NCBI GenBank assembly: GCA_048938025.1
Contig: JBHLMP010000004.1
Coordinates: forward strand, 32,001-96,000
DNA from: Promethearchaeota archaeon
GTDB taxonomy: Archaea; Asgardarchaeota; Lokiarchaeia; Sigyniarchaeales; SOKP01
Direction of reading: 5' to 3'
DNA: 64,000 bases
Positions 1 through 62,904 of the stretch are shown piece by piece. Position numbers and translations under genes: made by a program. Positions within the stretch are counted from its first letter, which is position 1, and each line of letters begins with the position of its first letter. The notes beneath the pieces are model-generated. The model had not been told where the DNA came from. It was given only the letters and a program-made list of their open reading frames with translations, and did not search any database.

Positions 1-560
1 CTATGTTCAAAATGAAACTCTGCATGAAACCCCAATTTATAGTAGCGATGAGGATACCTTCAAGTTTATCTCAATGGGTCGGGATGGCGATACTCAACAA
101 GCCTGTGATGAGATCGATTTTGTATTCATTCGCTTTAACATCTCTTCAGAGGATGCGATGGAAATCCTGAATCTCTTGCTTGAATGCTTAATAAACGAGA
201 CGACCAATGAAACTGCGTTTGTATACAGCTATATTTCAACTAAACTGAATGGGACTTCGGCGGTGATGATGAATCTGCCGATTCCGGTGCTAGGCATTAT
301 CCCGTGGTTTTGTGCGATGGAAAGCTCTTCTTTTGGCAAGACACCGAAAACTAGCAAACAAGCATTCTGGGAACCCTTAAAAAAGGTGGTATCGTTTGCT
401 GTCGGCTTAATTATAACCATTGGAATGGCGATTCTAGAACTGGTGGAGTTGATCGCAGAATTTGTTATGGACATTTTAATGGAGTGGCTACCCATATTAG
501 AGTATATATTATGGCTGATCATACGTGTACTTATTCTCATACTAGTTTGGATTATCTTTG
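1..560 (+). repeat. Direct repeat copy A (conserved cassette core)
   Basis: Aligns to 3038-~3600 at offset 3037; first 51 nt identical, 58/60 over the first 60 nt; similarity fades after the MEWLPILE...WIxFA segment. Confidence 0.9.
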
Positions 561-1528
561 CAATTACACTTTTAATAGTTATTATTGAATTTGTTTCTAT
601 AGTTGGAGTGTTATACACAATAAGTCTTTTCAGAGATGTTCAAATTACAACAAAAATCGATAATATCAAGGCAGAAGGTGATTTAAATATCGAATTTGGA
701 TATGATATTGGTTCAAAATACATTGATTTTCTTGAATTTTATATACCTACCATTGAAACTTATTTCGAAGCAGATAATTTATCAATGGTGTTTAAATTAA
801 ACTTTTTTTCAGTTTACATAAATTTCGAAAAATTTCCAGAAGATGTTTGTGATCAAGTTTTAAATAATGATCCCATACAATCTTCAGGATTATATCCAAA
901 AAGTAGTTCTAGTAGTGATGATGAATTAATCTATATTCTCGAAATTATATCAAATATAGGAGATGGAACTGGACATTGTGGTGCGGTGTTTACTATTACG
1001 GCATTTGTTTCTCATATTAATGAAGCAGATAAAAGTGGGTTTACAGGATTTTATGCTGGATTAATTGTGGCTATTTTTGAAATTGTTTCTTTTATAATAA
1101 TAACATTTACTTACGAACAAGATATTAAAATAATAGCTTCTGCTCTTTTGGGTCTAGGTATAGGATATCTTTTTTCGGGTGTGATTGCTATTGCTAGTGC
1201 AATTTATATGCACTTAATAGGAACTGTTATTTTTAATAGTAATGTTGATACATTGTTATTTCTTTTTCAAATTGATGATGCACTCTTAACTGTTTTTGGC
1301 ATTGTAGTAGCGATAGGTGAACTAGTAAAGGGTCTTCCCGATGATGAAATTTGGTGGTTAACCGAAGAATCTATAACAAGTATTACTGGAGGTTTTTTTG
1401 GATTGACAGTTGGAATTATGTCAATGATGACAGTTGCTAATAAAGGGATAGTTGGTATGGAAGGATTATTTTTCATATTTGTTGGTTTAGCATTGATAAT
1501 AACAAGTATTTCAATGGTTAGTGATTAA
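2..1528 (+). CDS. 5'-partial membrane protein, variable-C-terminus cassette 1
   Basis: Frame is open from base 2 (YVQNETLHETPIY...), so the ATG at 74 is internal. The first ~185 aa are highly similar to the middle of ORF 2439-4523; the C-terminus has several Gly-rich hydrophobic helices. Confidence 0.8.
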   Translation, partial: YVQNETLHETPIYSSDEDTFKFISMGRDGDTQQACDEIDFVFIRFNISSEDAMEILNLLLECLINETTNETAFVYSYISTKLNGTSAVMMNLPIPVLGIIPWFCAMESSSFGKTPKTSKQAFWEPLKKVVSFAVGLIITIGMAILELVELIAEFVMDILMEWLPILEYILWLIIRVLILILVWIIFAITLLIVIIEFVSIVGVLYTISLFRDVQITTKIDNIKAEGDLNIEFGYDIGSKYIDFLEFYIPTIETYFEADNLSMVFKLNFFSVYINFEKFPEDVCDQVLNNDPIQSSGLYPKSSSSSDDELIYILEIISNIGDGTGHCGAVFTITAFVSHINEADKSGFTGFYAGLIVAIFEIVSFIIITFTYEQDIKIIASALLGLGIGYLFSGVIAIASAIYMHLIGTVIFNSNVDTLLFLFQIDDALLTVFGIVVAIGELVKGLPDDEIWWLTEESITSITGGFFGLTVGIMSMMTVANKGIVGMEGLFFIFVGLALIITSISMVSD

Positions 1529-1685
1529 TTGTTAAATAAGGAGAACCTAATTATTTATAAATAATTTTTTTTTAAATACATAATTTTTTATATATAATGT
1601 TAATCTAAAAATAATACAAAGAAAAATTAAGTAATGATAATAATCATAAATAAAATTTTAATTCAAGAAAAAAAATTGGATTTTT

Positions 1686-2150
1686 ATGAATTTATATGTT
1701 TATAAATTAAAGGCTACTTGGAATCGTGTATCCTATGAAGAAATTCTTTTAGATTGTGTTGGGAGTGGTAATGAAGAAGATCCCGCTATAATAGAGCCCT
1801 CAGAATATCTCCCAGATTCTTTCTCCATTTTTAATTCTAATACTTTCATTAATATAAGGAACTGTATAAAAAGATTTATCGGATTTAAATTAAGTCAAAA
1901 TATATCATTGAAAGACTGTAAGATTAATAATTGTTTAGTAGATAATTCTTCAAAAATTAATATCAAAAATGTCATAATTGATAATTATCTCAAAGTACAT
2001 TCAAGTGATCATATTTATATTACAGATTCTAATATTAAAAAATTGAAGTTAAAACAAGCGAGTAGTAATATTATAAAAAATTGTACTATTCAAAAAATAA
2101 AAGAAATTAAAGGATTTAGTAACACTTTTCAAGATATAAAATCTATGTAG
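1686..2150 (+). CDS. Small right-handed beta-helix-like protein
   Basis: GSGNEEDPAIIE motif followed by repeated I-x-N-C-x-I / S-x-N-I patterns typical of parallel beta-helix repeats. Confidence 0.6.
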   Translation: MNLYVYKLKATWNRVSYEEILLDCVGSGNEEDPAIIEPSEYLPDSFSIFNSNTFINIRNCIKRFIGFKLSQNISLKDCKINNCLVDNSSKINIKNVIIDNYLKVHSSDHIYITDSNIKKLKLKQASSNIIKNCTIQKIKEIKGFSNTFQDIKSM

Positions 2151-2348
2151 GATGAGACTATTAAATTTAAAAAATCTTGTTGTTTTAATTTCCTTGCCAA
2201 TTTTAAGTTATATAGTTGATTGTCATATTTTTGTTATTTCATTTATCCTTTATAATTCTTTTACATTCTTGAATTCTTACACATTTAATCAAGTCTGCTG
2301 AAAATTTTAATTTTATTCCTAAATTTTGAATCTATAAGACTTATGTGA

Positions 2349-4523
2349 AAAGTTTTTGAAAAATTTCATCCTATAAGCGCAGATACGGATGGAGATGGTG
2401 TCTGGGATAAATTCGATCGAGATCCACATAAAGACGTAATGCTTGAGATCAGTCCCATTTCTGGATCGGTTCCCAATGATTACAAATTGAAAATTGTGAT
2501 TAAATTTAATGATGGTACAGGCGAAAAGTATTATATTCCAACACCAAAAGAAGTAGCAGATATATTTGAAGATCCCTTATACACTGCTTATTTTGATCTC
2601 CATTATTACATTGATATAAGCGATGATAAACGAGTTCCGAATAATTATGGTGCCATGAGGTTTGATATTGAATTATGGAGAGTGGATAGATACTGGGGAT
2701 TGATCAAAAAGTGGGATAAAAAGCTTGTTTCTGGTGATGAATATTACTACATCCAAACTCCAGGGCACGATGATACGCTAACAGTCGAGAAATATGATGA
2801 ATCTGAATTAGTTTATCAAGCTAAGGTAAAGGTTAAAACTATTGGAGTTGAAAAGGCAAACACCATCGCGATTTATGAAACCAATGGTACTGTGTTTAAT
2901 GGACATTATCAAGAACAGGAGCGGATGAATATTATACAACTGTATGTGAATGATAGCGGTGTGGGTACCCCTTTCGTAGAAGGACCTAATGTCATCGTGA
3001 TTCCAACCAGCCTCTTTACCGAAACTATCTTTAACGCCTATGTTCAAAATGAAACTCTGCATGAAACCCCAATTTATAGTAGCGATGATGATATCTTCAA
3101 ATTCATCTCAGTGGGTCGGGATGGCAGTACCGAGCAAGCCTGCGATGAAATCGATTTTGTATTCATTCGATTTGACATTTCTTCGCAAGATGCTATGGAA
3201 ATCCTGAATTTATTGCTTGAATGCTTGGTAAACGAGACCACCAATGAAACTGCGATCGTGTATAGCTATGTTTCTACCAAACTGAATGGAACTTTGGCTG
3301 TGATGATGAATCTGCCGATATCGGTGCTAGGTTTTGTCCCGTGGTTTTGCAACTTTGAAAATTCAATTATAGGTTCAAAACCGGAAACCAGAGACGATGT
3401 ATTCTGGAAAGGAATAAAAAAATTAATATCACTCGCCGTAGGGTTAATTGTAATCATTGGAATGGCGATTCTCGAGCTGGTGGAACTGATTGGAGATTTC
3501 ATCATGGAGATTTTAATGGAGTGGCTACCGATACTAGAATTTATACTGTTGTTAATAATTGGAGCGATAATTTTAATATATATCTGGATTATGTTCGCTT
3601 TCACAGTCTTATCTTTTATGTTATTATTTCTTCAGATAAGTTTAATATTCATATTTTTTAGTACAGTACTTGGAACAGAACCTATAATTAAGCTAAATTA
3701 CTTAGCAGTTGAAAATGATGATCTTAGTTTTAATTCAGATTACAGAATCGGTGAGAAATATAATAATTTCCTTAAATTAAAAATCCCAACATTATTCTTT
3801 TCTCTTGAAGTTAATCAGACTTCTTATAACACATATATAAACTTTTTTGATAGTGGTTCGATTGTTGAACTCGATTTCTTCGAAACAATTCTTCAGAAAC
3901 AAAATGTTTCAAGTAAAGATGCAAATGAAGAATCAGAATCTTGGTGGAATGGATTTAATCTAATTTTAGGGAGTTTTACCCTTTTAGAGTCTTCACATTT
4001 CATAACGAGATTATTTATTGATAATCCAATATATAATATACTTGTAAAAGTTGCTTTTTATTTAGGAGTCTTCTCTCTAACTCTAGGAATCATGAATGTT
4101 TGCTTAGATTTTCAAGACAAGGAAAAGAGGTTTGATACTTTACGCGGGTTGATTTTTGCTTCAATTGTTTTATTTGGTATTAATTTTTTGTTAAGAACTT
4201 TATATAGAAAAGGTGCACCTGGAGGATCAGGATTAAGTAATACACTTAGAAAATTATTTAAGTTGGGATTGGTGGTTGCTCTTTTTGGTAGCGGAGTGAA
4301 TGTTTTAAATTCAATTATGAGTTTTTTTGGCATTGATTTAGGAGTATCAAATTATTTATCGCTATTAACTTCAATACCGCTTTGGCTTGTCTCGCTCTTA
4401 ATTATAAGTCACTTGCCAAAAAATAAAGATAGAAAAGAAGTAATTAACGACTGGTTGTGGATTTCTATATTCCTAATCTTTTGTGTTGTTGTATATGCGG
4501 CAATAATTTTAAATCTTAATTAA
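2349..4523 (+). CDS. Variable-C-terminus cassette 2, apparently 5'-truncated (first ATG 2439)
   Basis: Frame opens after TGA at 2346-2348 and reads KVFEKFHPISADTDGDGVWDKFDRDPHKDVM, a DxDxDG Ca-binding-type repeat upstream of the first ATG; no signal peptide; multi-TM C-terminus. Confidence 0.75.
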   Translation, partial: KVFEKFHPISADTDGDGVWDKFDRDPHKDVMLEISPISGSVPNDYKLKIVIKFNDGTGEKYYIPTPKEVADIFEDPLYTAYFDLHYYIDISDDKRVPNNYGAMRFDIELWRVDRYWGLIKKWDKKLVSGDEYYYIQTPGHDDTLTVEKYDESELVYQAKVKVKTIGVEKANTIAIYETNGTVFNGHYQEQERMNIIQLYVNDSGVGTPFVEGPNVIVIPTSLFTETIFNAYVQNETLHETPIYSSDDDIFKFISVGRDGSTEQACDEIDFVFIRFDISSQDAMEILNLLLECLVNETTNETAIVYSYVSTKLNGTLAVMMNLPISVLGFVPWFCNFENSIIGSKPETRDDVFWKGIKKLISLAVGLIVIIGMAILELVELIGDFIMEILMEWLPILEFILLLIIGAIILIYIWIMFAFTVLSFMLLFLQISLIFIFFSTVLGTEPIIKLNYLAVENDDLSFNSDYRIGEKYNNFLKLKIPTLFFSLEVNQTSYNTYINFFDSGSIVELDFFETILQKQNVSSKDANEESESWWNGFNLILGSFTLLESSHFITRLFIDNPIYNILVKVAFYLGVFSLTLGIMNVCLDFQDKEKRFDTLRGLIFASIVLFGINFLLRTLYRKGAPGGSGLSNTLRKLFKLGLVVALFGSGVNVLNSIMSFFGIDLGVSNYLSLLTSIPLWLVSLLIISHLPKNKDRKEVINDWLWISIFLIFCVVVYAAIILNLN
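3038..3600 (+). repeat. Direct repeat copy B (conserved cassette core)
   Basis: Homologous to 1-560 at DNA and protein level (ACDEIDFVFIRF, AMEILNLLLECL, IGMAILELVELI shared). Confidence 0.9.
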
Positions 4524-4706
4524 TTTTTTTTTTTTAAAATCTAAAAATAATAGTTTAATTTGGTTTAACAAAAATTTTTTTAATCTAATTCAAAAAATTT
4601 GAGTTAGTGATTTTTTCGAATAATTAATGTTCGTAATTAACATTTATTTTTTTCTCTTTGTTATATTTTTTTAAATTTGATGGAAATTAAAAAGCATAAA
4701 ACATTT

Positions 4707-6176
4707 TTAATTAATTTTGTAAAATCTGTTTCTAAGATTTAGGATTTTTGTAAATAAGTTAACTTTTTTTGTTGGATTTATTTCAATTTTAGTGTTTTCA
4801 TCAGGACTTATACCTTCAATAGGATTTTTAAGGTGGATTTCAATATTTTGACGATTTAATTTATTAAAATAAGTAACGGCTACAACATTATTATAAGGAA
4901 TAGAATAGATTTTATTTGATTTTTCTAATATAATTCTCTGAGATGTAAATAAATATTTCCAAAATTTTTGTGTAAGAAAAATGATTAGCCCGAATATAAA
5001 TATTGAACAAATCCCCAAGAACACCAGCAAAGCATCTACTGATAAATTTATGACAGAGAAAGTAGTAAAATAAAAATATATGATTACTAAAAAAATAATT
5101 ATGATCATTTTTATTGAGGAATAAATTTTTTTAGGAAAATATATTATAAGAATCCTTTCAGTTTTGTTCAAATACTCTAAAAATGGTAAAATTCTTTCTT
5201 TAGAATACGTTATAGGTTCAACTTTCCTCTCAACTTTATTTATTTCTTTTATATATTCATAGGGTTTTTGTTCCTCTATTAAATTTAATATTTCTTCAAC
5301 ATGTAATAATAAATCTTTATTAAATTTCCAAGTCAAAAATTTTAAATAGATTAATTCTAAAACATCAAGAAAATTCTCAATAGGACCAAAAGTAAACTCA
5401 TCATAAGATGGTTCATAAGAAGATTTTATTATTAGTGTATTTATTTCATAATTTAGATAAAAATTATTATCAAATTCAATCTTTTGACTATTGATTCCCT
5501 TAGTTAAAACAAGATTATCATTATAAACTTTTAAAGAAACATTTTGTTTTGTTTCAACAAATTCATGAAAATCTTGAGTACCAACTTCATTATTAATTAC
5601 TTCTAGTCTCTTTTCTATATTCCCATAATGCCAAATTATTGATTCAATTATTTGAATTACCTTTGATATATTTTTGATTGGAGGTGTGATTATACTATTT
5701 TTTTTATGGAGTTGCTTATAATTTTTAAAATTTTTATAAATAAATTCAATTCTTCCCTTATCTTTGAAATAATCAATAAATTGAACACTAATAGCTTGTA
5801 AAGAAGATAATTCTACTATATCTGCACTAGAATTCATAGCAGATCTTATACTCAAGAGATAAATTTTTTTATTACTTATATAAATAAATAGTTTTAAAGG
5901 TTTTGACATTTGAAACGTATAAATGAAACCTATAGGAAATATAACAAAAATAGAAAGGGATAATATTAAGTAATCTTTAAAAAAATCTGATGTAAGAAAA
6001 GGAAAAATTACAAAAATAAAGCTAATTGGAATTAGAAAGAGAAATAAAATCATAATAATTTGTTCTTTTGAAAAAAATTTAAGTTTCAATTTATAAAGTA
6101 ATTTCTCATCTGGAAGCAAATTGTATAAAATATTCTCAGAAATATCAAAAATTTCGGTTTGCTCAGTTCTAAACAT
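4707..6176 (-). CDS. Membrane protein with two TM-hairpin + bacterial-PH-like modules
   Basis: 489 aa; repeated pattern LLPDEKLLY-TM-TM-YISNKKIY and LNKTERILII-TM-TM-YLFTSQRII. Confidence 0.55.
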   Translation of the reverse strand: MFRTEQTEIFDISENILYNLLPDEKLLYKLKLKFFSKEQIIMILFLFLIPISFIFVIFPFLTSDFFKDYLILSLSIFVIFPIGFIYTFQMSKPLKLFIYISNKKIYLLSIRSAMNSSADIVELSSLQAISVQFIDYFKDKGRIEFIYKNFKNYKQLHKKNSIITPPIKNISKVIQIIESIIWHYGNIEKRLEVINNEVGTQDFHEFVETKQNVSLKVYNDNLVLTKGINSQKIEFDNNFYLNYEINTLIIKSSYEPSYDEFTFGPIENFLDVLELIYLKFLTWKFNKDLLLHVEEILNLIEEQKPYEYIKEINKVERKVEPITYSKERILPFLEYLNKTERILIIYFPKKIYSSIKMIIIIFLVIIYFYFTTFSVINLSVDALLVFLGICSIFIFGLIIFLTQKFWKYLFTSQRIILEKSNKIYSIPYNNVVAVTYFNKLNRQNIEIHLKNPIEGISPDENTKIEINPTKKVNLFTKILNLRNRFYKIN

Positions 6177-6364
6177 TTTAAATCATGATCTATTAATAAA
6201 TTATGTACATTATTACAGAAAATACTTCATTAAAAAAGTATAATTATCATTTAAGATTTTTTGATTTAATTATTAATGTAAATAATGATTTTAGTCCCTT
6301 AAGAATAAATATTATTACTCTATAATAAAAATCTTCGCTTTTATTTAGTAAATAAATTAATAAA

Positions 6365-9340
6365 TTATTGAAACTTATATTCTGGAATTACTTGAATAGG
6401 ACTAGCTGATCTTAAAATATTGATACCAATATTACGGATTTCTCTTAATTCCTCTAAGACTAAATTTCTAATTTCCGTTTCTTTGATTTTTTTGCTGCCT
6501 AAAACATAATTTTTGACTTTTTGTGAACATATTTTAGAAAGAGTTGTGATTTTTAACTGTTCGTCAGTATCTTTAAATTTTGGAATATTAAAATATAATG
6601 GTCTTTTATGATGATGTCTTGTATCACTTATAATTTTCACACTTTTTGCTAGATCAGGAATACTTAACATACCACACAAATAATATGCTTCATCTTCATT
6701 TTTAGTACCATAATAGTATAAAGTTGAGTCAACATAAATTCTTCCTTCTGGATCATTAATAACAGCCGCAAGTAATCTTTTAGCGTTTGGAAACACAACT
6801 TTATAGGGTAATCTTTGAACTTTTTTAACAATGTTGTTAGTACATAACTTATTTCTATAATTAATTCCTACCTCAAATAAATCCTTATTAACTTCTTTTC
6901 GATAAATTTCTTTTATGAAATTCCAATGCTTTCTACTAAATGGACCTAATGTGGAAACTGAAAAAGTAAAATTTTCATTTAAGGGTAAAAATATTGCATA
7001 AGGTTTAATATAAAATGGATAAAGTTGACGAGAAAGTGTTGCTTGAAAAAGACAAATTGTTTCAATCCGTGCATGTTTATAATGGGGTTTCTTCCAAATA
7101 TCTTTAGCCTGTGGTGAGATCCAAGGTTCTATTATAGAAATTTTACCATTTTGAATGGTTTCTATTATATTACAATAAAGTAAAACTTTAGGGATTAAAT
7201 CAGCACCTTGAATAAATTCGCTATAATAATCAGATAAATGACATGGAAGTAAATCTGCTTTTTTCTCAGATTTAATTAACTTTTTGACCAAATATTTCTC
7301 ATTCTTTTTTTCTTGGAAATAAACATAGGGTTCTAAATGGTACTGATCTAGTACCTCCATTGTATTAGCATCTAAATAATGACATAATATGGGATATTTC
7401 TTATGAACATCCTCTATTCCTATAATTTTATCAATAACATGAGCAAAAATACAGCAACAATCAATATTAAATACTAAATTATTAAATTCAAAGAATTCTA
7501 TATTTTCAAATGGTTCAAATCTTCTTGCTTTTTGATTTTGCGAGGAAACTAATAATGAACGAGGCATTACAAATGCGATTTTACCATTTCCATCTTTTCT
7601 AAGATAAAGATCTGGAACTCTATACAAAAAAATAACTGCTTCTTCTATATTTGTTATGTTTTGAGCTGCAGGTTTTATATTAAATTTGTTAGATAGCTTT
7701 TTCATGGTTTCTTTTAGTCTTGGATCTGCATCCTTATAAGTTAACCATGGTGGATTTGTAATAATTAAATCCATTTTTTTTTTCATTAAAAGTAAACGTA
7801 TTCCAAGTAAATTGTTCAATATATAAAGCCAAATATGATCTTTATCTTGTTTTCTTAACTCAAACAACTTTTTGAAAAATTGATAGATAGAATTGATAAA
7901 TGGTTGATCTAAATTAGAGTAAGATTCTTTTAAATTATCCTTATTTGAAATTGCGGCAATCCAAGTATCCTTAAATTTATCAAAATCTTCCCACACATTA
8001 TAAAGAGATTTTACTAATTCTTGAAAAGTTTCAATATTAGAAGAGGATAAAAAATCACCAGGTATTCTAAGTTCTAATTCACTATCCAATAAATCAACAC
8101 AAAAAGCATAATATTTTCCTAATTCAATATCTGCTACTTCAGAAAATTCTAATGGATCAATAGAATTACACAAATAAACATTAATAGAAATGCTTTCAAT
8201 CCATTCTTTTCTATTTTTAAAATATAATATACAATTTGCCTTTGTTGTTAATACTGCAATGGGATTAATATCAAATCCAAATATATTATTTATTGCATCA
8301 AACCATTCTTTAGGAGGTTTTACTTCTTTATCTAAATTGAATTGAGAATCTATTCTTTTATATGTCTCAATAATAAAGGTTCCTGAGCCACAAGATGAGT
8401 CTAGAACTCTATCTCCCAATTCATATTGTTTTTCAACCATTTTTTTACATAAAAATTCTGGTGTATAATATTCTCCTAATCTATGTCTTACTCCAGCAAT
8501 AATCATCTCTTGATAGATAGTCCTAAAGATATCAGTAGCTTTTAAAGTGATTGTTTTCAAAATCTCAAAATAATCGTCACATAATCCTTGAACGTTTATT
8601 ATCCACCTGAAAAAATCATAATGAAACAAAGATATACCGAGTAGTTCGAAATAATTTTCTAAATCTTTGAAATATTCACGGGAATATTGCTCTGGATTAA
8701 TGAATTCTTTATATAAAATCAACTTTAAAAGCATACTCAGATAAGAGTGTCTTAAAAATAATTCTTTACCTACTTCTTCATCGTGATAAGCAAGCCTAAA
8801 ATGTTTTTTCCATTGTTGAAAACAAATGGTTTTTTCTCCGCTATGGTCTTCAAAATGCTTCTCTAATCGAGAATATGATAAAATGTAAAGGGGAGAGTTT
8901 ACACCAAATAGAATTGCAAATTGTTCGGAATCCAAAGATTTAGTTTCTAACAAACACTCCATTAATGATCTAATAGATCTTTCATTAATCTCACGCTTAT
9001 TTCTTAAAATAAGATCTTCATCATAATACCAAATATAGGATTCTGAGATAATAATTAATAAATTTGGATATTTTCCTTTAGTTTCAAAATATTCTTGAAT
9101 GTATTGCTTACCTTTTAAATTCAGCCAATTATTTAGAGTTTTATTTGAAATTTTATATTTATAATCAAGAATTATATCTCCAATCAAACAATCTGGTTTT
9201 CCGTATAAAATTCTTTGTTGAGCTTGATAAGTTAATCCTATCTTATCAAATAAGCTATCAAACCAATGTTCAATGTCAAATTCATTTGAAGATCTTTTAA
9301 TGGGAGTTATGTCGATTTCTAAATCCTTTATTAAATACAT
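6365..9340 (-). CDS. Type IIG-like restriction-modification protein (N6-adenine methyltransferase with N-terminal PD-(D/E)xK-like domain)
   Basis: GEYYTPEF, motif I VLDSSCGSGTF, GFDINPIA, motif IV IITNPPW; N-terminal KPDCLIGDIILDYK. Confidence 0.85.
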   Translation of the reverse strand: MYLIKDLEIDITPIKRSSNEFDIEHWFDSLFDKIGLTYQAQQRILYGKPDCLIGDIILDYKYKISNKTLNNWLNLKGKQYIQEYFETKGKYPNLLIIISESYIWYYDEDLILRNKREINERSIRSLMECLLETKSLDSEQFAILFGVNSPLYILSYSRLEKHFEDHSGEKTICFQQWKKHFRLAYHDEEVGKELFLRHSYLSMLLKLILYKEFINPEQYSREYFKDLENYFELLGISLFHYDFFRWIINVQGLCDDYFEILKTITLKATDIFRTIYQEMIIAGVRHRLGEYYTPEFLCKKMVEKQYELGDRVLDSSCGSGTFIIETYKRIDSQFNLDKEVKPPKEWFDAINNIFGFDINPIAVLTTKANCILYFKNRKEWIESISINVYLCNSIDPLEFSEVADIELGKYYAFCVDLLDSELELRIPGDFLSSSNIETFQELVKSLYNVWEDFDKFKDTWIAAISNKDNLKESYSNLDQPFINSIYQFFKKLFELRKQDKDHIWLYILNNLLGIRLLLMKKKMDLIITNPPWLTYKDADPRLKETMKKLSNKFNIKPAAQNITNIEEAVIFLYRVPDLYLRKDGNGKIAFVMPRSLLVSSQNQKARRFEPFENIEFFEFNNLVFNIDCCCIFAHVIDKIIGIEDVHKKYPILCHYLDANTMEVLDQYHLEPYVYFQEKKNEKYLVKKLIKSEKKADLLPCHLSDYYSEFIQGADLIPKVLLYCNIIETIQNGKISIIEPWISPQAKDIWKKPHYKHARIETICLFQATLSRQLYPFYIKPYAIFLPLNENFTFSVSTLGPFSRKHWNFIKEIYRKEVNKDLFEVGINYRNKLCTNNIVKKVQRLPYKVVFPNAKRLLAAVINDPEGRIYVDSTLYYYGTKNEDEAYYLCGMLSIPDLAKSVKIISDTRHHHKRPLYFNIPKFKDTDEQLKITTLSKICSQKVKNYVLGSKKIKETEIRNLVLEELREIRNIGINILRSASPIQVIPEYKFQ

Positions 9341-12670: not shown

Positions 12671-13705
12671 CTAAAGATTTCTAAAGTAATTGTCTACTTC
12701 ATTTGGAGAAAAGCCTTCAATCTCTATATTTTTTGAGCTTAAAGGAATGTTATTTTTTTTTAATTCTTTAAAAATATTTTTAAAAAGCAGGATTTGGGAC
12801 TTATCAATCCAAAATTGTTCCAATTTTTTTATAAATTCACACCCTATATCTATTTGTTCTATCGGATTATTAGAAATATCAAATTCCTTTAAATCTTTTA
12901 TATTTATTATCTCAGAGGGGATAAAGCTTACATTATTCATTGGTAAATATAAAATCCTTAAATGAACCATTTTAAAGATAGAATTTGGAATGATATCAAG
13001 TTCTATGTTATTTAATTCTAAATGAACTATTTCCTTAAACATATTTAGTTTATCTATGAGATTTCCAATAGGATGATCATCAATATGTAAGCTACGAACA
13101 TTTCCATATACGATATAACATGAATTTGGAATACTGATTTGTTTTTTATAATCTAATATTATTGATAATTCAAAACCAAGTTTTTGATTTATCTTTTGAA
13201 TTAAATCGAATTCATCTGGAACAAGACCCATATATTGATATAGTTTATATCTTGTTCTAAGGAGACCATATCTCTCAAGAAGATTAATACCATCTCTGCA
13301 TTCAGAGATATATTTTTCTAAAGTGAATCTATCCCAATAATGTGTTATATATTGCCCTTCTTGATTAATAGCTTTAAAATTGTCTTGAACTGATGTACTT
13401 GGTATAGTTGTAGTGATTAAAAAATAACCATCCGTATTATGTATCTTACAAGCACTACGAATATCTCCGAGTTCAGACTCATAAACTGATTTATTTGAGA
13501 CAGCTTTATTTTTGCATTGTACTAAAAATTTATAATTCTGATGTCTACCAATTACATCCTTTACAGAATATCTAATTATAAGATCTTTTTTTCTATCTGG
13601 ACCTCTCGAAGGTCCTTCCACAATTTCAATCCCAATCGATTCTAATAAATCTCTACAGAAAAATTCAAAATCTTCCCCACTAAGACTACTGAAATCAATT
13701 GGCAT
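12671..13705 (-). CDS. Mrr-like restriction endonuclease fused to leucine-rich repeats
   Basis: N-terminal FEFFCRDLL...GPDRKKDLI...LVQCK; C-terminal LxxLxLxxNxLxxIP repeats (HLELNNIELDIIP, LRILYLPMNNVSFIP, LKEFDISNNPI). Confidence 0.8.
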   Translation of the reverse strand: MPIDFSSLSGEDFEFFCRDLLESIGIEIVEGPSRGPDRKKDLIIRYSVKDVIGRHQNYKFLVQCKNKAVSNKSVYESELGDIRSACKIHNTDGYFLITTTIPSTSVQDNFKAINQEGQYITHYWDRFTLEKYISECRDGINLLERYGLLRTRYKLYQYMGLVPDEFDLIQKINQKLGFELSIILDYKKQISIPNSCYIVYGNVRSLHIDDHPIGNLIDKLNMFKEIVHLELNNIELDIIPNSIFKMVHLRILYLPMNNVSFIPSEIINIKDLKEFDISNNPIEQIDIGCEFIKKLEQFWIDKSQILLFKNIFKELKKNNIPLSSKNIEIEGFSPNEVDNYFRNL

Positions 13706-27538: not shown

Positions 27539-28810
27539 CTAAAGATCTAAGCGTTTTTTCTTCGCAAACAAGTCTTTTAACTCATCCAGAACCCGTAATC
27601 TTGTATTTTCTCTTGCTCCAACTTTAGCTTGATCTGGGTTAGCAATTCCTATTGGTACGCCACTTTGAGCCATTTGAAATGCTCCTGATTCTATAGCTCG
27701 AAGGCGGCTATCAATATCATTTAATTGTTTAGCCAAACTTTCAGAGAGTCGTATAATAACATTCATCGTTTCTTCTAATGTCTTACCAAGACCATCTACC
27801 TTTCTAAGGGTGGGATCAGCTAAAGAATGAGTATCACTCATTATTTTTTTTATGTATTTAGCAAATTGAGGTTCATGGGAAATCATTGAATAGATAGAAG
27901 TTAAATAAATCTCGACCTCAAAAATAAATTCTTTATTTTGTAATAATTCATTTAATTTCTCCTTTAAAAGCTCAGTATTCAATAAAATTTCAGGATCCTT
28001 CTTCAAATCAGGATCAAATTTATGAATAAAAACTAGAATATATGGATTTTCTTCTAAGGTTATTATTAAATCAATAACTTTACCAAAATAGTCTATTGTT
28101 TCATCAAATCTATCTGAATCTTGGACGTCAATAACATAAATTAAAAGATCTATTTGCAGAAAGTATTGTTCTGGATTTTCTAAATATCTTGATCTGTATT
28201 CCTCTTGACCTCCTAAATCCCAGATATATAGAGAAAGCTTTTCACTGCCCACATTCATTCGATAAACTCCTTTTGTTGGTTGTGTCTTGATCAAATCACT
28301 TACGCCTAGACGACCTCCCAGTTTGGATAAGGAGGCAGTCTTTCCAGCATTATCTAGTCCTGCTACTACAATCTTTTGTGCTTGAGTCCCAAAATCTCTT
28401 ATATCAGCTTCAAAATTAGTAATTATGGAACTTATTGTTATTGCTTTTTTCAAATTTCTTTCAAGTGCAGGAAATTTTTCTTTAAGCTCCTCGATTTTTA
28501 CTGACAAATTTTCTTTCATTTCAGATACAGTCGATGGATCCTCTGCGTCTTCAAGAAATTTAATTATACTTTCAAATGGGTTTTCTTTATTTAATTTTGA
28601 AATTTCACTAATCTTAGAAATTTCGAACAATTCCTTTACAATATTTGATTCTTCTTTATTTAAGAATTTAAATGTATGAATTGGTAATTTTAAAATATCA
28701 TCTAAAGTTTTTAGTTTGGTAATCTTAGCATCTTTAGGATCTAAGAATTTAGAAAATACATTTATTACACTAGAAAAATCTGTTTCTGTTTTAGCCATTT
28801 TAGTAATCAA
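27539..28810 (-). CDS. Arf-like small GTPase with N- and C-terminal helical extensions
   Basis: GLDNAGKT, PTKG, WDLGGQ, HKFD, LTSI. Confidence 0.9.
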   Translation of the reverse strand: MITKMAKTETDFSSVINVFSKFLDPKDAKITKLKTLDDILKLPIHTFKFLNKEESNIVKELFEISKISEISKLNKENPFESIIKFLEDAEDPSTVSEMKENLSVKIEELKEKFPALERNLKKAITISSIITNFEADIRDFGTQAQKIVVAGLDNAGKTASLSKLGGRLGVSDLIKTQPTKGVYRMNVGSEKLSLYIWDLGGQEEYRSRYLENPEQYFLQIDLLIYVIDVQDSDRFDETIDYFGKVIDLIITLEENPYILVFIHKFDPDLKKDPEILLNTELLKEKLNELLQNKEFIFEVEIYLTSIYSMISHEPQFAKYIKKIMSDTHSLADPTLRKVDGLGKTLEETMNVIIRLSESLAKQLNDIDSRLRAIESGAFQMAQSGVPIGIANPDQAKVGARENTRLRVLDELKDLFAKKKRLDL

Positions 28811-29008
28811 TCTTTCTTTTTAATTATATTATGTTAAAATAATTTTTATTATTATTTATTAAACTTTTAAGATACTAGTTAAAAAGATAAAGATTTAAAT
28901 TTTCACACCCGTTTTTAATCTAGATCAAAATTTAAATATTTAGTTTATTTTAAATATAATACGAAAAAGTAATAATCCCAATAAAATCCTTTAATAATTT
29001 AAACTATT

Positions 29009-29926
29009 ATGCCATCTCATTTTGAAGATGATGAATTCTTTGAGGATAAAGATCAAGAATCATGTTGTGATTCACCAAAGATCTCTCAAGAGGATGGTTT
29101 CTATGTTTGTTTAAATTGTGGCTCTGTATACAGTAGAATTCTCGATGATAGCCCTCGAAGAGCTTTTACTCAAGAAGAGATCCAAAAAAGAAAAAGTAAT
29201 GAAAGAGTCTACAGCCCAATTGGCCCCAGAACAATTATAAGAGGTAGTAGAGACGCTCGAGGAACATTATTAAGTCCAAAATATAAATCCAAATTTAATA
29301 GACTAGCTAAAATTCATAGATCGCTGACTACAAGTTATGAGAGAAACTTATGGATTGCGTTACCAAACCTACAACGCTTACAAAAAAGACTAGGAATTCC
29401 TGATACTGTTGCAGAAGATGCCCTTAGAATCTATACTCAAACTGTAAAAAAGAAATTGACTATGGGGAGAAGTATTGATACTTTACTTTCGGCTTCAATA
29501 TTCGCTGCTTTAAGAGTCCATGGTATTCCAAGAACAGTTGAAGAAATAACAAAAGTAGCACAGATACCAAAAAAGAAGGTTATTAAAAGTTATAGATTAA
29601 TACTCATGGAAGTACTTCCCAAATTAAATTTAAAAGTTCAACACTTTTCACCAATTCGTTATGTTGATAAATTTAATGATGAATTAAAACTTTCTATGCA
29701 ATGTAGAAATATAGCTGTTAAAATAATTGAAAAAGCTAAAGAATGTGGATTTAACTCAGCAGGAAAAGACCCTAAAGGAATTGCGGCAGCAGCAATATAT
29801 ATTGGTTCAAAAATCTGCGATGAAAATCGAACTCAGAAGGAAATTAGCAAGTTAGCGCGCGTTACTGAAGTTACTTTAAGAATGAGAGTAAAAGATTTGC
29901 AAAAATATGCTAGCATTGTTGAATAA
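29009..29926 (+). CDS. tfb: Transcription initiation factor IIB
   Basis: Zinc ribbon CCD...CLNCG, ERNL, GRS, PRT, GKDPKGIAAAAIY, TQKEI...VTEVTLR. Confidence 0.95.
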   Translation: MPSHFEDDEFFEDKDQESCCDSPKISQEDGFYVCLNCGSVYSRILDDSPRRAFTQEEIQKRKSNERVYSPIGPRTIIRGSRDARGTLLSPKYKSKFNRLAKIHRSLTTSYERNLWIALPNLQRLQKRLGIPDTVAEDALRIYTQTVKKKLTMGRSIDTLLSASIFAALRVHGIPRTVEEITKVAQIPKKKVIKSYRLILMEVLPKLNLKVQHFSPIRYVDKFNDELKLSMQCRNIAVKIIEKAKECGFNSAGKDPKGIAAAAIYIGSKICDENRTQKEISKLARVTEVTLRMRVKDLQKYASIVE

Positions 29927-59013: not shown

Positions 59014-62000
59014 TTATGTGACAAATTCTATATGAGTGTCCTCAGCCCCTTCTACAGTACGGACTATTATGACTAATTCATCACCAGGATTAATAGTACC
59101 AAGTTTAATCTCTATTATAGCCATATCTACTGTTAATTGTAATGAATCACCAGCTCCAATTATAAAATCTTGTTCATTGAACACATCTAAAGAAAAATAA
59201 GTACCATTTATGTAAACAGAATCAACTGTAACATTTAGTAACCCATTATTGTCGGTTAAAATTGTTAGAGTACCTGAACTTACTGCTGATGTTCCACCAT
59301 CATCAATTTCTATATTATAGTATGTCGAATCAACAATTGCAGTTAGATTTGCTATAGCCTGAGCGGAATTATATGTAGTAACTCTTATATTTACTTGATC
59401 AGATGCATTAACTTTTAAATCTGTGATATTAAATGATATTAAAGCACATTCTTGTACGTCTAGAATAGCGTTCCCGTAAATAAATTCCACTTCGTTGCTA
59501 TTTGAGCAATTTAATATTTCTGTCTCATTAAGATATACGCTATCTAAAGTTACCGGAACATTTCCAGTATTTTTAATAACTAGTCTTCCTGTTTCATTAG
59601 CATAAATGTAGGAAACTGGTGTACCCTCAAGATTTTCTATTATTTGAACATCTGGTTCATTCCTTATAGTGTGAATGTAACCAATATCTGAAGCTACTGG
59701 TGTTCCGTAGCTTGTTGTAACACAGAGGAGTATTTCTTCATTTACTTCACCATCAATATAGTCTGTTGCATCAACAACAATAATATCTTCCTCATTTGCA
59801 TCTAAAGTAAAGTTTCCACTAATCGTAAAGAAATGTTCAAGATTAACTGGTTTCAGCGATTCTGTAAGATATATCGGACCTAATGCGTAAATAACATCAC
59901 CAGTATTTTTAACATAAATCTTTATTATGGTACTACCATTGTCATAAGTATAAGCATATGTTTTAGTAAAATCTATTGGTATATGTTTTCGATAATTACT
60001 ATCGATTGCTGCTGCTACTATTTCAGGGGATAGAATTCTATTATCATTATAAATTGTGATCGAATTGTTCTCCTGACTTGAAGTAAATAATATCTCATCT
60101 CTAATATCATTCGGAGTGGCTACTCCGATCTTATTATAAGTTCTTATAGGATAAAAAGATACTGGTGAGTTTTGTAAGTAAATTGTTGCTTTTTCTCCTG
60201 GATATAGTATCGAAGAACCACTAAGATATTCAATATTCTCGTTGAGAAACGTATTACTGACCATATCGTCGTTTACATAAAACCTATCGAGAACAACAAT
60301 AGATTCTCCTACATTTTCCACCTCAAGGAGAGCATTAGCAGTATCATGATCAATCTGAATAACTTTACTGTTTGCTTTATTGATACGTATTGCTCCTTCT
60401 CCTCCTTCTTTAACAAAAAAGTTACTTGTAGAATTTGAAAATGTAAATTTTTTTTCCTCAAGTGCCTCTGATTCGGCTGTAACATTTATTCTTACAACAT
60501 CATCTTTATTGAAAGTTGTACCTCCAGATTTAATATCAACCCAAACGAGATCATCCTCTCCTGCATTCACTATTTTTGTATTTATTCCTTTACCTAAGGT
60601 AAAATTATATTCCTTCCCATTAACTTTTATACTTGTTATCGATAAGTCTTTCTTCCCAATATTATCTAATTTAAAGGTACCATATCCACTATCAAATATT
60701 TCTGGATTGGTTATCATAAATTTAGAATCTAGAGCTGTATAATCGACTTTGTATAATCTTACCATTCCATTTGGTGAAAAATGTTCTTTAACAAAGACTT
60801 TAAAATCATATGCTCCATATGGCGGAATATGAGCTAGCCACAAATTGCCATCAGCAGCTTGTCGCTGATTAATTTGACTAGCATAATGATTTGCTAAACT
60901 ACCTTCAGGGGTAGAAGCAGGATCCGTAGGAATTCCGTAAAACATGAGTCTTACTAATTGACTATCAAACCATTTATCTCCCATAGCTCCAGTCGTTGAA
61001 TTTTGATAGTCATTTTCATCAAATACAGCATTTTCAGCCCAGTTATCCTTTTCAAGGCCCAAACTCTTATAATATTCATAGTGATCATTACATATACGAA
61101 CCATCCATGGCCATTTACCTTCATCCCCGCCTAGTCCAGAATATAAATATCCAAAATATACTAATACATAATCAGCTTTCAGTTCACGAAATATCTCGGC
61201 ACTATAAATTTCATTTGTTTGCATGAATGCCATTCCTGTCATTCCTATTCGTTCACCTTTAAAAGTGGCATTATCATTAACCGTTGTTACGTTTCCTATA
61301 GGTGTGAGCCAATATCCATAATCCCACCATGAAACTACAACAGCAGTACCTGGTAAATTATTTTTCATCCAAGTTAATGATTCTTCCCAATCATGAAGTA
61401 TTCCTACTGGTGCCATTTGATTATAAGATAATCGATCAATTGAAACATCTGTTGTATGAACTACCTGAGCAACGCATAAAAATCCTATTATAAGATATAC
61501 TGCTAACACTTCAGTATTACCCACAGTACCTTTGACCTGTCTCCTCCTTTTTCTACTTACTACACCTTTTTGTTCTCCTATAAAACCACCATAAATTTTT
61601 AAAATATTAACCAAACCATAGGCTCCTACTAGAGATGCAGCAGGAGCAAATAATAGGATTATACGGATCATAGCTCCAGTGAAATAGAACAATAATAATA
61701 CAAAAACTATCATAAAAATATCAGGAGCGTTTAATCTCTTTAAACAAAAATAGATGCCAAGTGGTACTAAAATTAATGGAATCAGAATATTGTAGTAAAA
61801 TACACTCCAGGCACTTGGATTTTGCTCTGCAACTGAGGCAACCAGACTCAAACCTTCTCGTACTAATGGATTTAGCAGAGCATAAAATCTACCACCAAAA
61901 CCAAAAGGAATAAGTGCAGGATCAATCCAGATAAGTATTGCAACAATTAATATCACCGGAATAAGCCCCCATTTTATAAGATTAATTAACCCATTATAAA

Positions 62001-62904
62001 ATCTAGGATATTCATTTTTCTTTGTATAAATTAAATGGAAAATTATTAAAATAATTGTAAAGAAAAAAATTCCTCCTGTTTCTAAGCTCGAGAATAGACT
62101 TTCATGGTTAAACCTAATATATAATGAGAATATTAATAAACCAGTACCTTGAGCTCCAGCATATGCTATTAAAATATTTTCATTATATTTCTTTATCAAA
62201 ATTAGAATAACGCAAATTAGTGGGATAATTAAGTATGCAAATTGATATCCGCCCCAACTTAAGGATAAATAACCTAAAAATACTCCACTTAATATTGAAT
62301 AAGATATTTTTCCCGTTCGTACCGCTTTTAGAAAAAATAAAAAGATCATTAAAACACTAAAAACACCTATAGTTTCATTATCAAAAAAGCCAGCAATGGT
62401 GCGTTGAAGATAGCCAATATTAAAAGCTAAAAAGAAAGCAGCCATAAGACCCGTCCCTTTACTATGTACTTCCTTTCCCAAAAAATACATAACAAGGACC
62501 GTAATGCCACCCATAATTGCGGGGAAGAAATAACAAACATAATATAATGAGACAGGTATTCCGAGAAATTTAAGAGTTTTATAAATTGTTACAACTGTAA
62601 AAGTCAATCCAGGACGTAAGGTACTTCGAAAATAACCTTCAGGGTACCAACTCTTAAGATCTCGCCAATGAAAATATTCATAAAATGAATGGGTTGACAG
62701 ATATTCTGAGTTATAATATTGTATCCATGGATCGAAAGCTTTAATAAGAAGTGGCCCTCTTAGGATTGGAGTTAGCCTTACCACTATTGCTAGGGTAACA
62801 AGTAGAAATAATGCTATGAATAATAATATATTTCGAGTTTTGATTGATACAGAAGCTCGAGCGCGATCACGGAAATTTCTAATTGAAGCAATAACTCTAG
62901 GCAT
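59014..62904 (-). CDS. aglB: Oligosaccharyltransferase AglB/STT3 with long C-terminal extension
   Basis: FDPW, GFFDNE, SVAEQ, WWDYG, DNAT, GGDEGKW. Confidence 0.95.
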   Translation of the reverse strand: MPRVIASIRNFRDRARASVSIKTRNILLFIALFLLVTLAIVVRLTPILRGPLLIKAFDPWIQYYNSEYLSTHSFYEYFHWRDLKSWYPEGYFRSTLRPGLTFTVVTIYKTLKFLGIPVSLYYVCYFFPAIMGGITVLVMYFLGKEVHSKGTGLMAAFFLAFNIGYLQRTIAGFFDNETIGVFSVLMIFLFFLKAVRTGKISYSILSGVFLGYLSLSWGGYQFAYLIIPLICVILILIKKYNENILIAYAGAQGTGLLIFSLYIRFNHESLFSSLETGGIFFFTIILIIFHLIYTKKNEYPRFYNGLINLIKWGLIPVILIVAILIWIDPALIPFGFGGRFYALLNPLVREGLSLVASVAEQNPSAWSVFYYNILIPLILVPLGIYFCLKRLNAPDIFMIVFVLLLFYFTGAMIRIILLFAPAASLVGAYGLVNILKIYGGFIGEQKGVVSRKRRRQVKGTVGNTEVLAVYLIIGFLCVAQVVHTTDVSIDRLSYNQMAPVGILHDWEESLTWMKNNLPGTAVVVSWWDYGYWLTPIGNVTTVNDNATFKGERIGMTGMAFMQTNEIYSAEIFRELKADYVLVYFGYLYSGLGGDEGKWPWMVRICNDHYEYYKSLGLEKDNWAENAVFDENDYQNSTTGAMGDKWFDSQLVRLMFYGIPTDPASTPEGSLANHYASQINQRQAADGNLWLAHIPPYGAYDFKVFVKEHFSPNGMVRLYKVDYTALDSKFMITNPEIFDSGYGTFKLDNIGKKDLSITSIKVNGKEYNFTLGKGINTKIVNAGEDDLVWVDIKSGGTTFNKDDVVRINVTAESEALEEKKFTFSNSTSNFFVKEGGEGAIRINKANSKVIQIDHDTANALLEVENVGESIVVLDRFYVNDDMVSNTFLNENIEYLSGSSILYPGEKATIYLQNSPVSFYPIRTYNKIGVATPNDIRDEILFTSSQENNSITIYNDNRILSPEIVAAAIDSNYRKHIPIDFTKTYAYTYDNGSTIIKIYVKNTGDVIYALGPIYLTESLKPVNLEHFFTISGNFTLDANEEDIIVVDATDYIDGEVNEEILLCVTTSYGTPVASDIGYIHTIRNEPDVQIIENLEGTPVSYIYANETGRLVIKNTGNVPVTLDSVYLNETEILNCSNSNEVEFIYGNAILDVQECALISFNITDLKVNASDQVNIRVTTYNSAQAIANLTAIVDSTYYNIEIDDGGTSAVSSGTLTILTDNNGLLNVTVDSVYINGTYFSLDVFNEQDFIIGAGDSLQLTVDMAIIEIKLGTINPGDELVIIVRTVEGAEDTHIEFVT

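Follow-up and report, generated by a model that had tools for sequence, protein, structure and literature searches.

The stretch of DNA analysed here, hereafter the window, comprises 64,000 nt of a Promethearchaeota (Asgard archaeon) genome (G000:C51:32001-96000, C51 being the contig that bears it), whose assembly has a size of 3.52 Mb in 88 contigs and a GC content of 29%. The aEF-2 of this genome shares up to 94% identity with that of metagenome-assembled Promethearchaeota and other Asgard genomes, in agreement with this placement. Two same-strand open frames at window positions 2..1528 (open at the 5' edge) and 2349..4523, named cassettes 1 and 2, share a conserved core and end in different C-terminal tails. 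The window's 5' edge falls within cassette 1, and the complete gene order on the plus strand, including the part upstream of the window, is a giant parent gene, a 193-aa membrane protein, cassette 1, a 154-aa beta-helix-like protein, cassette 2 and a convergent 489-aa membrane protein (Table 1). The locus is probably a polymorphic C-terminal module system of this archaeon, with tail types switched by recombination.

The shared core of the two frames, already recognised in the first-pass annotation, was aligned by BLASTP at 61% identity over 270 aa (E 9e-95) and by blastn at 82.8% over 728 nt. The latter figure includes sequence upstream of the window and is near the core length of about 560 nt given earlier; inside the window, the shared part covers approximately positions 1-508 and 3038-3545. 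The identity of the first 51 nt was likewise borne out (1-51 equals 3038-3088), the exact repeat extending to 63 nt with 12 nt upstream of the window. In all pairs, the conserved-to-variable switch lies at the junction ...M[ED]WLPILEYILWLIIR, which reads ...MEWLPILE[YF]IL.LI.. in the cassettes, whereby nucleotide identity drops from 70-95% before it to 55% or less after the cassettes' junction, and to at most about 60% over all pairs. As had been noticed, the core is more GC-rich than the tails (0.38-0.43 against 0.26-0.32, with about 0.20-0.25 in intergenic DNA). The GC content at third codon positions (GC3) is 0.37-0.41 in the core (window 1-526 and 2838-3563; C51:28528-29529), 0.24-0.31 in the remaining giant and 0.14 in the tail, and the raised value in the core could result from GC-biased gene conversion or foreign origin.

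The open frames of cassettes 1 and 2 comprise 771 and 724 codons, with parent homology beginning at giant residue ~3252 in cassette 1 and ~3203 in cassette 2. Cassette 2 indeed starts abruptly at a DTDGDG repeat with no start codon: its frame opens after the stop codon TGA 2346-2348, the N-terminus runs through the TSP3-type repeat ...ADTDGDGVWDKFDRDP at 2379-2426, and there is no ATG, GTG or TTG ahead of ATG 2439. In the parent, the methionine of this first possible start lies internally and is conserved. The start region of cassette 2 shares 81% nucleotide identity with giant positions 28124-28220.

The full-length parent with DxDxDG repeats, which had been suspected upstream, was found directly upstream of the window as a single open frame of 3,941 codons (C51:18508-30330), or 3,935 aa counted from the first methionine. 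The protein has an N-terminal hydrophobic signal (residues 26-44) and a body with at least four PKD domains, two LamG domains and TSP3 repeats (Pfam PKD/PKD_4, Laminin_G_3 x2, TSP3_bac), and it contains 93 N-glycosylation sequons. Pfam and NCBIfam scans returned PKD, LamG and TSP3-type matches only, and no YD/RHS repeats, PAAR, TPS/FHA or VENN. The 3' end of the giant consists of the 242-aa core and a multi-helix tail of ~320 aa, which is of a third type, unlike those of cassettes 1 and 2; elsewhere, this type occurs on a LamG-bearing protein of 1,196 aa (56% identity over the full length). An unusually long AglB/STT3 oligosaccharyltransferase (1,296 aa) is encoded at window 59014-62904 (-), consistent with a heavily glycosylated surface.

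Table 1. Features of the giant gene and cassette array; positions are given on contig C51 or in the window.
Feature	Position	Strand	Description
Giant parent gene	C51:18526-30330	+	3,935 aa
Membrane protein after giant	C51:30409-30987	+	193 aa
Cassette 1, full frame	C51:31213-33525	+	Opens 788 nt before the window; parent homology from C51:31419
Cassette 1, 3' part of core	window 1..526	+	85% nt identity to giant 28260-29355; junction mapped
Cassette 1, variable tail	window 527..1528	+	333 aa + stop; ~4-5 further predicted membrane helices, embedded beta domain
Cassette 1, neighbour	window 1686..2150	+	154 aa, 'G.G...DP.II' beta-helix-like family, membrane helix absent
Cassette 2, 5'-truncated start	window 2349..2837	+	After TGA 2346-2348; TSP3-type Ca-binding remnant 2379-2426, then divergent pre-core
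Cassette 2, hyperconserved core	window 2838..3563	+	242 aa, TIGVEKANT... to junction ...ILLLIIG; holds first conserved membrane helices
Cassette 2, variable tail	window 3564..4523	+	319 aa + stop
Cassette 2, neighbour	window 4707..6176	-	489-aa membrane protein, two tandem (membrane hairpin + bacterial-PH-like) modules

Both orphan modules have counterparts on longer genes in other organisms (L-numbers below denote the loci or contigs compared, and P-numbers database proteins). A search with the cassette 1 tail among longer proteins found P0001, a protein of 2,291 aa with PKD, LamG and TSP3 domains, which is encoded by a 2,301-aa frame on the metagenomic contig L131. Over 1,974 aa it aligns with the giant at 65% identity, and this alignment stops exactly at giant residue 3620. 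Past this junction, the identity to the giant's tail is 16-32%, yet the same protein matches cassette 1 at 57% over 671 aa, through the last residues, and the next gene is 40.5% identical over 153 aa to the neighbour of cassette 1. Contig L132, cut by its contig start, carries part of a giant orthologue (1,117 codons or more; 60% identity over 874 aa), which aligns with cassette 2 at 54.6% over 744 aa, through the cassette's end; the convergent gene after its tail is 42.6% identical over 486 aa to the neighbour of cassette 2. Thus, orthologous giants carry different tails, and both orphan tail-plus-neighbour modules end longer genes elsewhere. Overall, the body of the orthologous giants compared is 47-83% identical and the tail 16-32%. 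Since orthologous giants bear different tails, these are not simply inherited vertically; the vertical conservation that would have spoken against tail swapping was therefore not observed, and the proposed co-occurrence of each tail with a specific downstream gene holds for both orphan modules.

Exchange among the three copies was examined in a codon alignment of the giant, cassette 1 and cassette 2. In the pre-core, the giant and cassette 1 share 85-92% nucleotide identity, with cassette 2 at ~50%. Over the next 60 codons, all three copies are 87-98% identical, in the following 20-codon block cassettes 1 and 2 agree at 97% with the giant at 72-75%, and in the junction-proximal core the giant is closest to cassette 2 (83%), with cassette 1 at 57-68%. 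The 287 informative sites showed 119 label changes against 174.7 +/- 7.7 in permuted data, and none of the 10,000 permutations was as low. Moreover, the nearest relative of each copy shifts from segment to segment when all other cassettes are included. The three copies thus form a significant mosaic, and segments have therefore been exchanged among the giant and the cassettes; as judged from the alignment, the process is segmental gene conversion between the partial copies and the full gene, for which either direction of transfer is possible. The ratio of nonsynonymous to synonymous divergence (dN/dS, Nei-Gojobori) in the cores is 0.09-0.16 at dS 0.55-0.93, the orphan-orphan pair included, and the tails are saturated. 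By this measure, the cores are evidently under purifying selection, so that recent local duplication followed by neutral decay does not account for the copies. Cassette 1 is degenerate over its first ~70 codons. Another contig, remote from the main locus, carries a frameshifted stub of the pre-core of the giant (G000:C69:1843-2351, -); it ends inside the most conserved block (TIGIEKANTIAIY...) and may be a recombination leftover.

A read check was made with short Logan contigs from four DNA runs (X1-X4) over the region L128 (G000:C51:27601-37000). The assembly graphs of the runs branch repeatedly across this region, with many loose ends. A joint of L128 position 3157 to 7595 has just 20 letters on one side. 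A single contig of run X2 (depth 3.7) connects a point 47 nt past the stop codon of the giant with one 37 nt ahead of cassette 2, the two being separated by 28 letters of other sequence; it may come from a variant lacking the first module, or may be an error or another strain. The branching and the X2 contig are hints of strain-level structural variation.

The core recurs in relatives, often as tandem arrays of truncated copies. It was detected in 7 of 41 relatives of the first sample and in 27 of the 135 genomes of the family (9 of 36 high-quality genomes), representing 6 of 13 genera, and is mostly terminal in frames of 2,300-6,000 codons. Altogether, 33 loci contained 43 core-bearing frames, of which 17 were orphan-like (5' end inside the locus and fewer than 1,100 codons; two of the 17 are pieces of one frameshifted copy), 12 had at least 1,500 codons and 14 were cut by contig ends. 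Of these loci, 7 had at least two same-strand copies. Relative to the giant, the orphan 5' ends map to 14 distinct positions from residue 2881 to residue 3582, all upstream of junction 3620, and a start-preceded signal peptide was not seen in the 11 orphan N-termini inspected. Counts of the main gene per genome are unreliable because many contigs break in the repeats. In relatives, leucine-rich repeat proteins are repeatedly encoded in the vicinity of cassette loci (9 members); past the array in the window, an Mrr-like nuclease domain fused to leucine-rich repeats is encoded at 12671-13705 (-), and a 991-aa fused N6-methylase/Eco57I-type restriction-modification enzyme lies just past the array at 6365-9340 (-).

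The 242-aa core is the best conserved part of the whole protein, with a mean column identity of 82% among 12 copies from several species. The tails fall into a short class of 307-398 aa and a long class of ~700-900 aa, and 97 tails, a set containing duplicates between database proteins and loci, formed 47 clusters at 35% identity or more. The claim that the tails are unrelated was correct in part. By all-against-all BLAST and profiles, the distal ~190 aa are recognisable solely within one type, the giant's tail being the most divergent, and to this extent the claim stands. It does not stand for the remainder, as profile comparison revealed distant homology over ~210-280 columns for most types: four tail types were matched by hhalign with 97-99.7% probability over 213-279 columns, with one pair over only 96 columns. 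On these profiles, the tails are one fast-diverging polytopic membrane family. The unrelated toxin folds (nucleases, deaminases, etc.) that characterise polymorphic toxins were not detected among them, and the tails were not classed as toxins because they are continuous with the conserved membrane helices and all homologous. Core and tail matched 169 cluster representatives among 1.84 billion at E <= 0.001; no Pfam or NCBIfam family was found for either, the Pfam search covering 79 members, and a sequence search of the PDB gave no match.

The AlphaFold model of cassette 1 (702 aa, mean predicted local distance difference test score (pLDDT) 82.7, predicted TM-score (pTM) 0.47) begins with a beta sandwich and an alpha/beta core, continues through a long region of helical hairpin (312-404) and a beta domain of six strands (407-471), and ends in six long helices (499-701). 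The embedded beta domain measures ~65-110 aa in the tail, and hydropathy predicts a total of ~7-9 membrane segments. The 'AVMMNLP...PWF' segment is followed by a K/R-rich loop that would suit the cytoplasmic side. For the helix bundles, ABC exporter halves and class B/adhesion G-protein-coupled receptors were considered and rejected, as VIA-align Z values did not exceed 7.6, below the tool's noise for helical proteins; a frataxin-like fold for the embedded beta domain was dismissed at Z 6.3-6.7. A GAIN/GPS-like autoproteolysis site at the conserved 'STK.NGT.AVMMNLP' was unsupported, this segment being more likely the first membrane helix followed by the K/R-rich loop. The ectodomain model (300 aa, pLDDT 84.7) had no Foldseek match, and an Atlas feature search with cassette 2 gave no usable match. 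The list of nearest solved structures for ectodomain residues 1-130 consisted almost wholly of C2 domains (Z 4.1-6.8, too weak to name the fold), and the Atlas model of cassette 2 likewise listed C2 clusters; a C2-like beta sandwich in the pre-core is thus suggested by the models as a lead only.

As first annotated, the two cassettes are followed by different genes, a beta-helix protein and a PH-like membrane protein, the latter on the opposite strand. The 'G.G...DP.II' beta-helix-like family, of which the neighbour of cassette 1 is a member, comprises 13 proteins distributed over 8 of the 33 loci; some of them have a membrane hairpin at the C-terminus, and one matched Pfam DUF3737 (E 1.1e-5) and Beta_helix (E 0.009). 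For the neighbour of cassette 2, the nearest Atlas structures were bPH_2 proteins (TM 0.5-0.64), so that a bPH-like fold is a model-based lead only. Proteins akin to it in layout, which start with 'EEILW' and have two membrane helices plus a domain of ~100 aa, are encoded after tails at five further loci. According to the part of PMC8657885 drawn on here, membrane proteins with PH domains occur in leaderless-bacteriocin loci. In other genera, giants with long tails (700-900 aa) have a secreted protein of 406-520 aa after them or nearby (L017, L038, L042-L047, L133); it showed weak matches to Zn-dependent phospholipase C in 8 loci, one of them above the Pfam cut-off (L044, 31.4 bits).

The working of the locus can be pictured as follows. 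The main gene, presumed to be expressed, would encode a secreted Ca-binding surface protein ending in the core and a polytopic membrane tail, followed by a tail-specific partner gene. The two downstream modules would be stored or displaced units. Each combines part of the core, truncated at its 5' end, with a tail of a different type and that tail's own partner, and has no start codon or export signal. Homologous recombination in the core could then fuse an orphan tail and its partner onto the main gene and so switch the tail type; alternatively, an incoming module might be inserted at the main gene and the old one pushed downstream. The earlier proposal of a C-terminal swapping system analogous to Rhs/CdiA on a large Ca-binding surface protein was strengthened by the parent gene, the recurrence in relatives, the shared tail-plus-neighbour modules and the non-vertical tails.

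The purpose would most likely be cell-cell discrimination on contact, with tail and partner acting as a cognate pair. The module-specific partners and the many ancient tail types found in more than one species suggest that such a pair would be under diversifying or balancing selection, in contact-dependent antagonism or identity recognition. Provided that the locus is a tail-switching system, the tail is, with nearly even prospects, a membrane-active effector with the partner as its protector; tail and partner may instead form a lock-and-key identity pair, a possibility to be held more tentatively, and other roles take up the rest. Taken as a proposal of its own, an allorecognition-type locus is rather doubtful: the membrane-embedded tail of a giant adhesin would be an identity determinant that needs a match with the co-inherited partner, and ancient tail types would persist in different species under frequency-dependent selection, with the orphans as the source of reshuffling. 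If true, it would be the first candidate system of self/non-self recognition (partner choice, fusion, kin discrimination) in the archaeal lineage closest to eukaryotes.

Several observations weigh against a tail-switching module system. The tails are one divergent family continuous with the conserved membrane helices, which resembles a resident anchor rather than a detachable toxin, and no toxin, peptidase or release domain was detected in core or tail by Pfam and NCBIfam. No known fold was matched either: Foldseek returned nothing at E <= 0.001 for the cassette 1 model, and the fold comparisons covered the hyperconserved core (residues ~130-300) only thinly. The partner genes are heterogeneous; that of cassette 1 has no membrane helix or signal, and that of cassette 2 is convergent and therefore not co-transcribed with the tail. 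No link to a partner was found for the giant's own tail, the only relative of its 193-aa neighbour (35% over 105 aa) following another tail type. No recombinant junction was seen directly in the short contigs of the four runs. Furthermore, 14 of the 43 core-bearing frames are cut by contig ends and cannot be classed, and in genomes G011 and G080 the copies detected were all truncated, which could be due to assembly loss or to orphans persisting without a main gene.

Three other explanations of the array were considered. The cassettes could be a silent store that serves, through the same kind of recombination, to vary a part of the giant exposed at the surface and so to escape viruses or other users of it as a receptor, the neighbours being incidental or assembly helpers. 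Start-less partial copies beside one full gene, and the segmental conversion among them, are what such a store would have; all tails forming one homologous family would suit alleles of one function, the embedded beta domain (~65-110 aa) could be exposed, and restriction-type defence genes adjoin the locus. Against this, the tail types keep a specific neighbour across organisms, for which antigenic variation has no need, the variable part is mostly predicted membrane helix rather than exposed loop, and variation among orthologues is far lower in the huge exposed body (47-83% identity) than in the tail (16-32%), so that a silent store is unlikely.

It is still less probable that the cassettes are ordinary paralogues, i.e., shorter membrane proteins made from internal starts of their own and independent of the giant. 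Frames open for 771 and 724 codons in a genome of 29% GC, cores under purifying selection, and gene callers that give a 759-aa product for cassette 1 (P0002) and a cassette 2 product from ATG 2439 would all agree with this. However, the parent homology of cassette 2 precedes that first possible start, whose methionine is conserved and internal, and the copies have no signal peptide, although the ~240-370 residues before their first membrane helix correspond to the parent's extracellular, sequon-rich part. The 5' ends, moreover, vary over 14 truncation points, and the same sequences end longer genes elsewhere. Functionless, decaying remnants of a tandem duplication of the giant's 3' end are very improbable. 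Truncated copies do occur, one of them with a cut tail (L013, 54 aa), as do frameshifted fragments (G000:C69:1843-2351; L019), besides the degenerate first ~70 codons of cassette 1. Neutral decay is nevertheless a poor fit to dS 0.55-0.93, dN/dS 0.09-0.16 and intact frames of more than 700 codons; the tails belong to distinct ancient types, for which relatives exist in other organisms, and did not arise by divergence from the resident tail, and the same layout recurs in several species.

Archaeal polymorphic toxins have reportedly been surveyed by Makarova et al. in mBio in 2019. In the literature searched, which excluded this survey and all supplements, no description of polymorphic C-terminal cassettes in Asgard archaea was found. 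The twist of the present locus is that a giant Ca-binding adhesin would swap a polytopic membrane domain together with a partner gene, neither of them matched to a known fold. Three new families have been defined, namely the core, the tail and the partner proteins, and the locus offers a testable handle on how wall-less Asgard cells living in tight partnerships compete or recognise each other.

In the antigenic-variation systems pilE/pilS and vlsE/vls, a single expression site is accompanied by start-less partial copies, and segments are exchanged in a mosaic manner. The locus shares with them the start-less partial copies and the mosaic exchange with a full gene. In contrast, its units are whole modules of tail and neighbour, and its variable part is predicted to be mostly membrane-embedded. 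In antigenic variation, the variable region is the exposed epitope; the tail here is mostly a predicted helix bundle with one embedded beta domain, which may face either side of the membrane. In Proteus, a variable membrane-associated determinant, IdsD, is encoded beside its cognate membrane partner IdsE, and identity is established by the match of the pair, with type VI secretion involved. The likeness to IdsD/IdsE is a works-like analogy only, no homology having been seen; Ids, unlike the present locus, uses type VI secretion and is not known to have a comparable orphan array.

Classical polymorphic toxin systems are generally scarce in archaea according to the portion of Zhang et al. (2012; PMC3482391) drawn on here, in which the only pore-forming toxin domain is the two-helix Tox-WTIP. 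Compared with that portion, the locus has the same combination of a trafficking domain, repeats, a variable C-terminus, an adjacent specific gene and standalone cassettes; it differs in a tail of about six or more helices and in that none of the toxin or immunity families listed there was matched. Overall, the locus works like a polymorphic toxin locus from which unrelated toxin folds and the Rhs/CdiA delivery domains are both missing. Unlike the contact-dependent inhibition (CDI) and Rhs systems, it resides in an Asgard host, its main protein has a body of PKD, LamG and TSP3 domains with no YD/RHS, TPS/FHA, VENN or PAAR, its variable part is one divergent polytopic membrane family instead of unrelated soluble toxins, and among its partners are a beta-helix-like protein and a convergently encoded membrane protein with two bPH-like modules. 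In the parts of the respective papers drawn on here, orphan cdiA-CT/cdiI modules show the same pattern of orphan modules ending longer genes elsewhere (Poole et al., 2011; PMC3150448), and an orphan Rhs toxin of Salmonella has been shown to take part in recombination-driven replacement or displacement (Koskiniemi et al., 2014; PMC3967940). As far as these parts go, the present locus has in common with CDI and Rhs a large exported main gene, a sharp conserved-to-polymorphic switch at its C-terminus, downstream fragments that keep part of the conserved region without initiation or export signals, a small downstream gene linked to each fragment, and indications that main gene and orphans have recombined.

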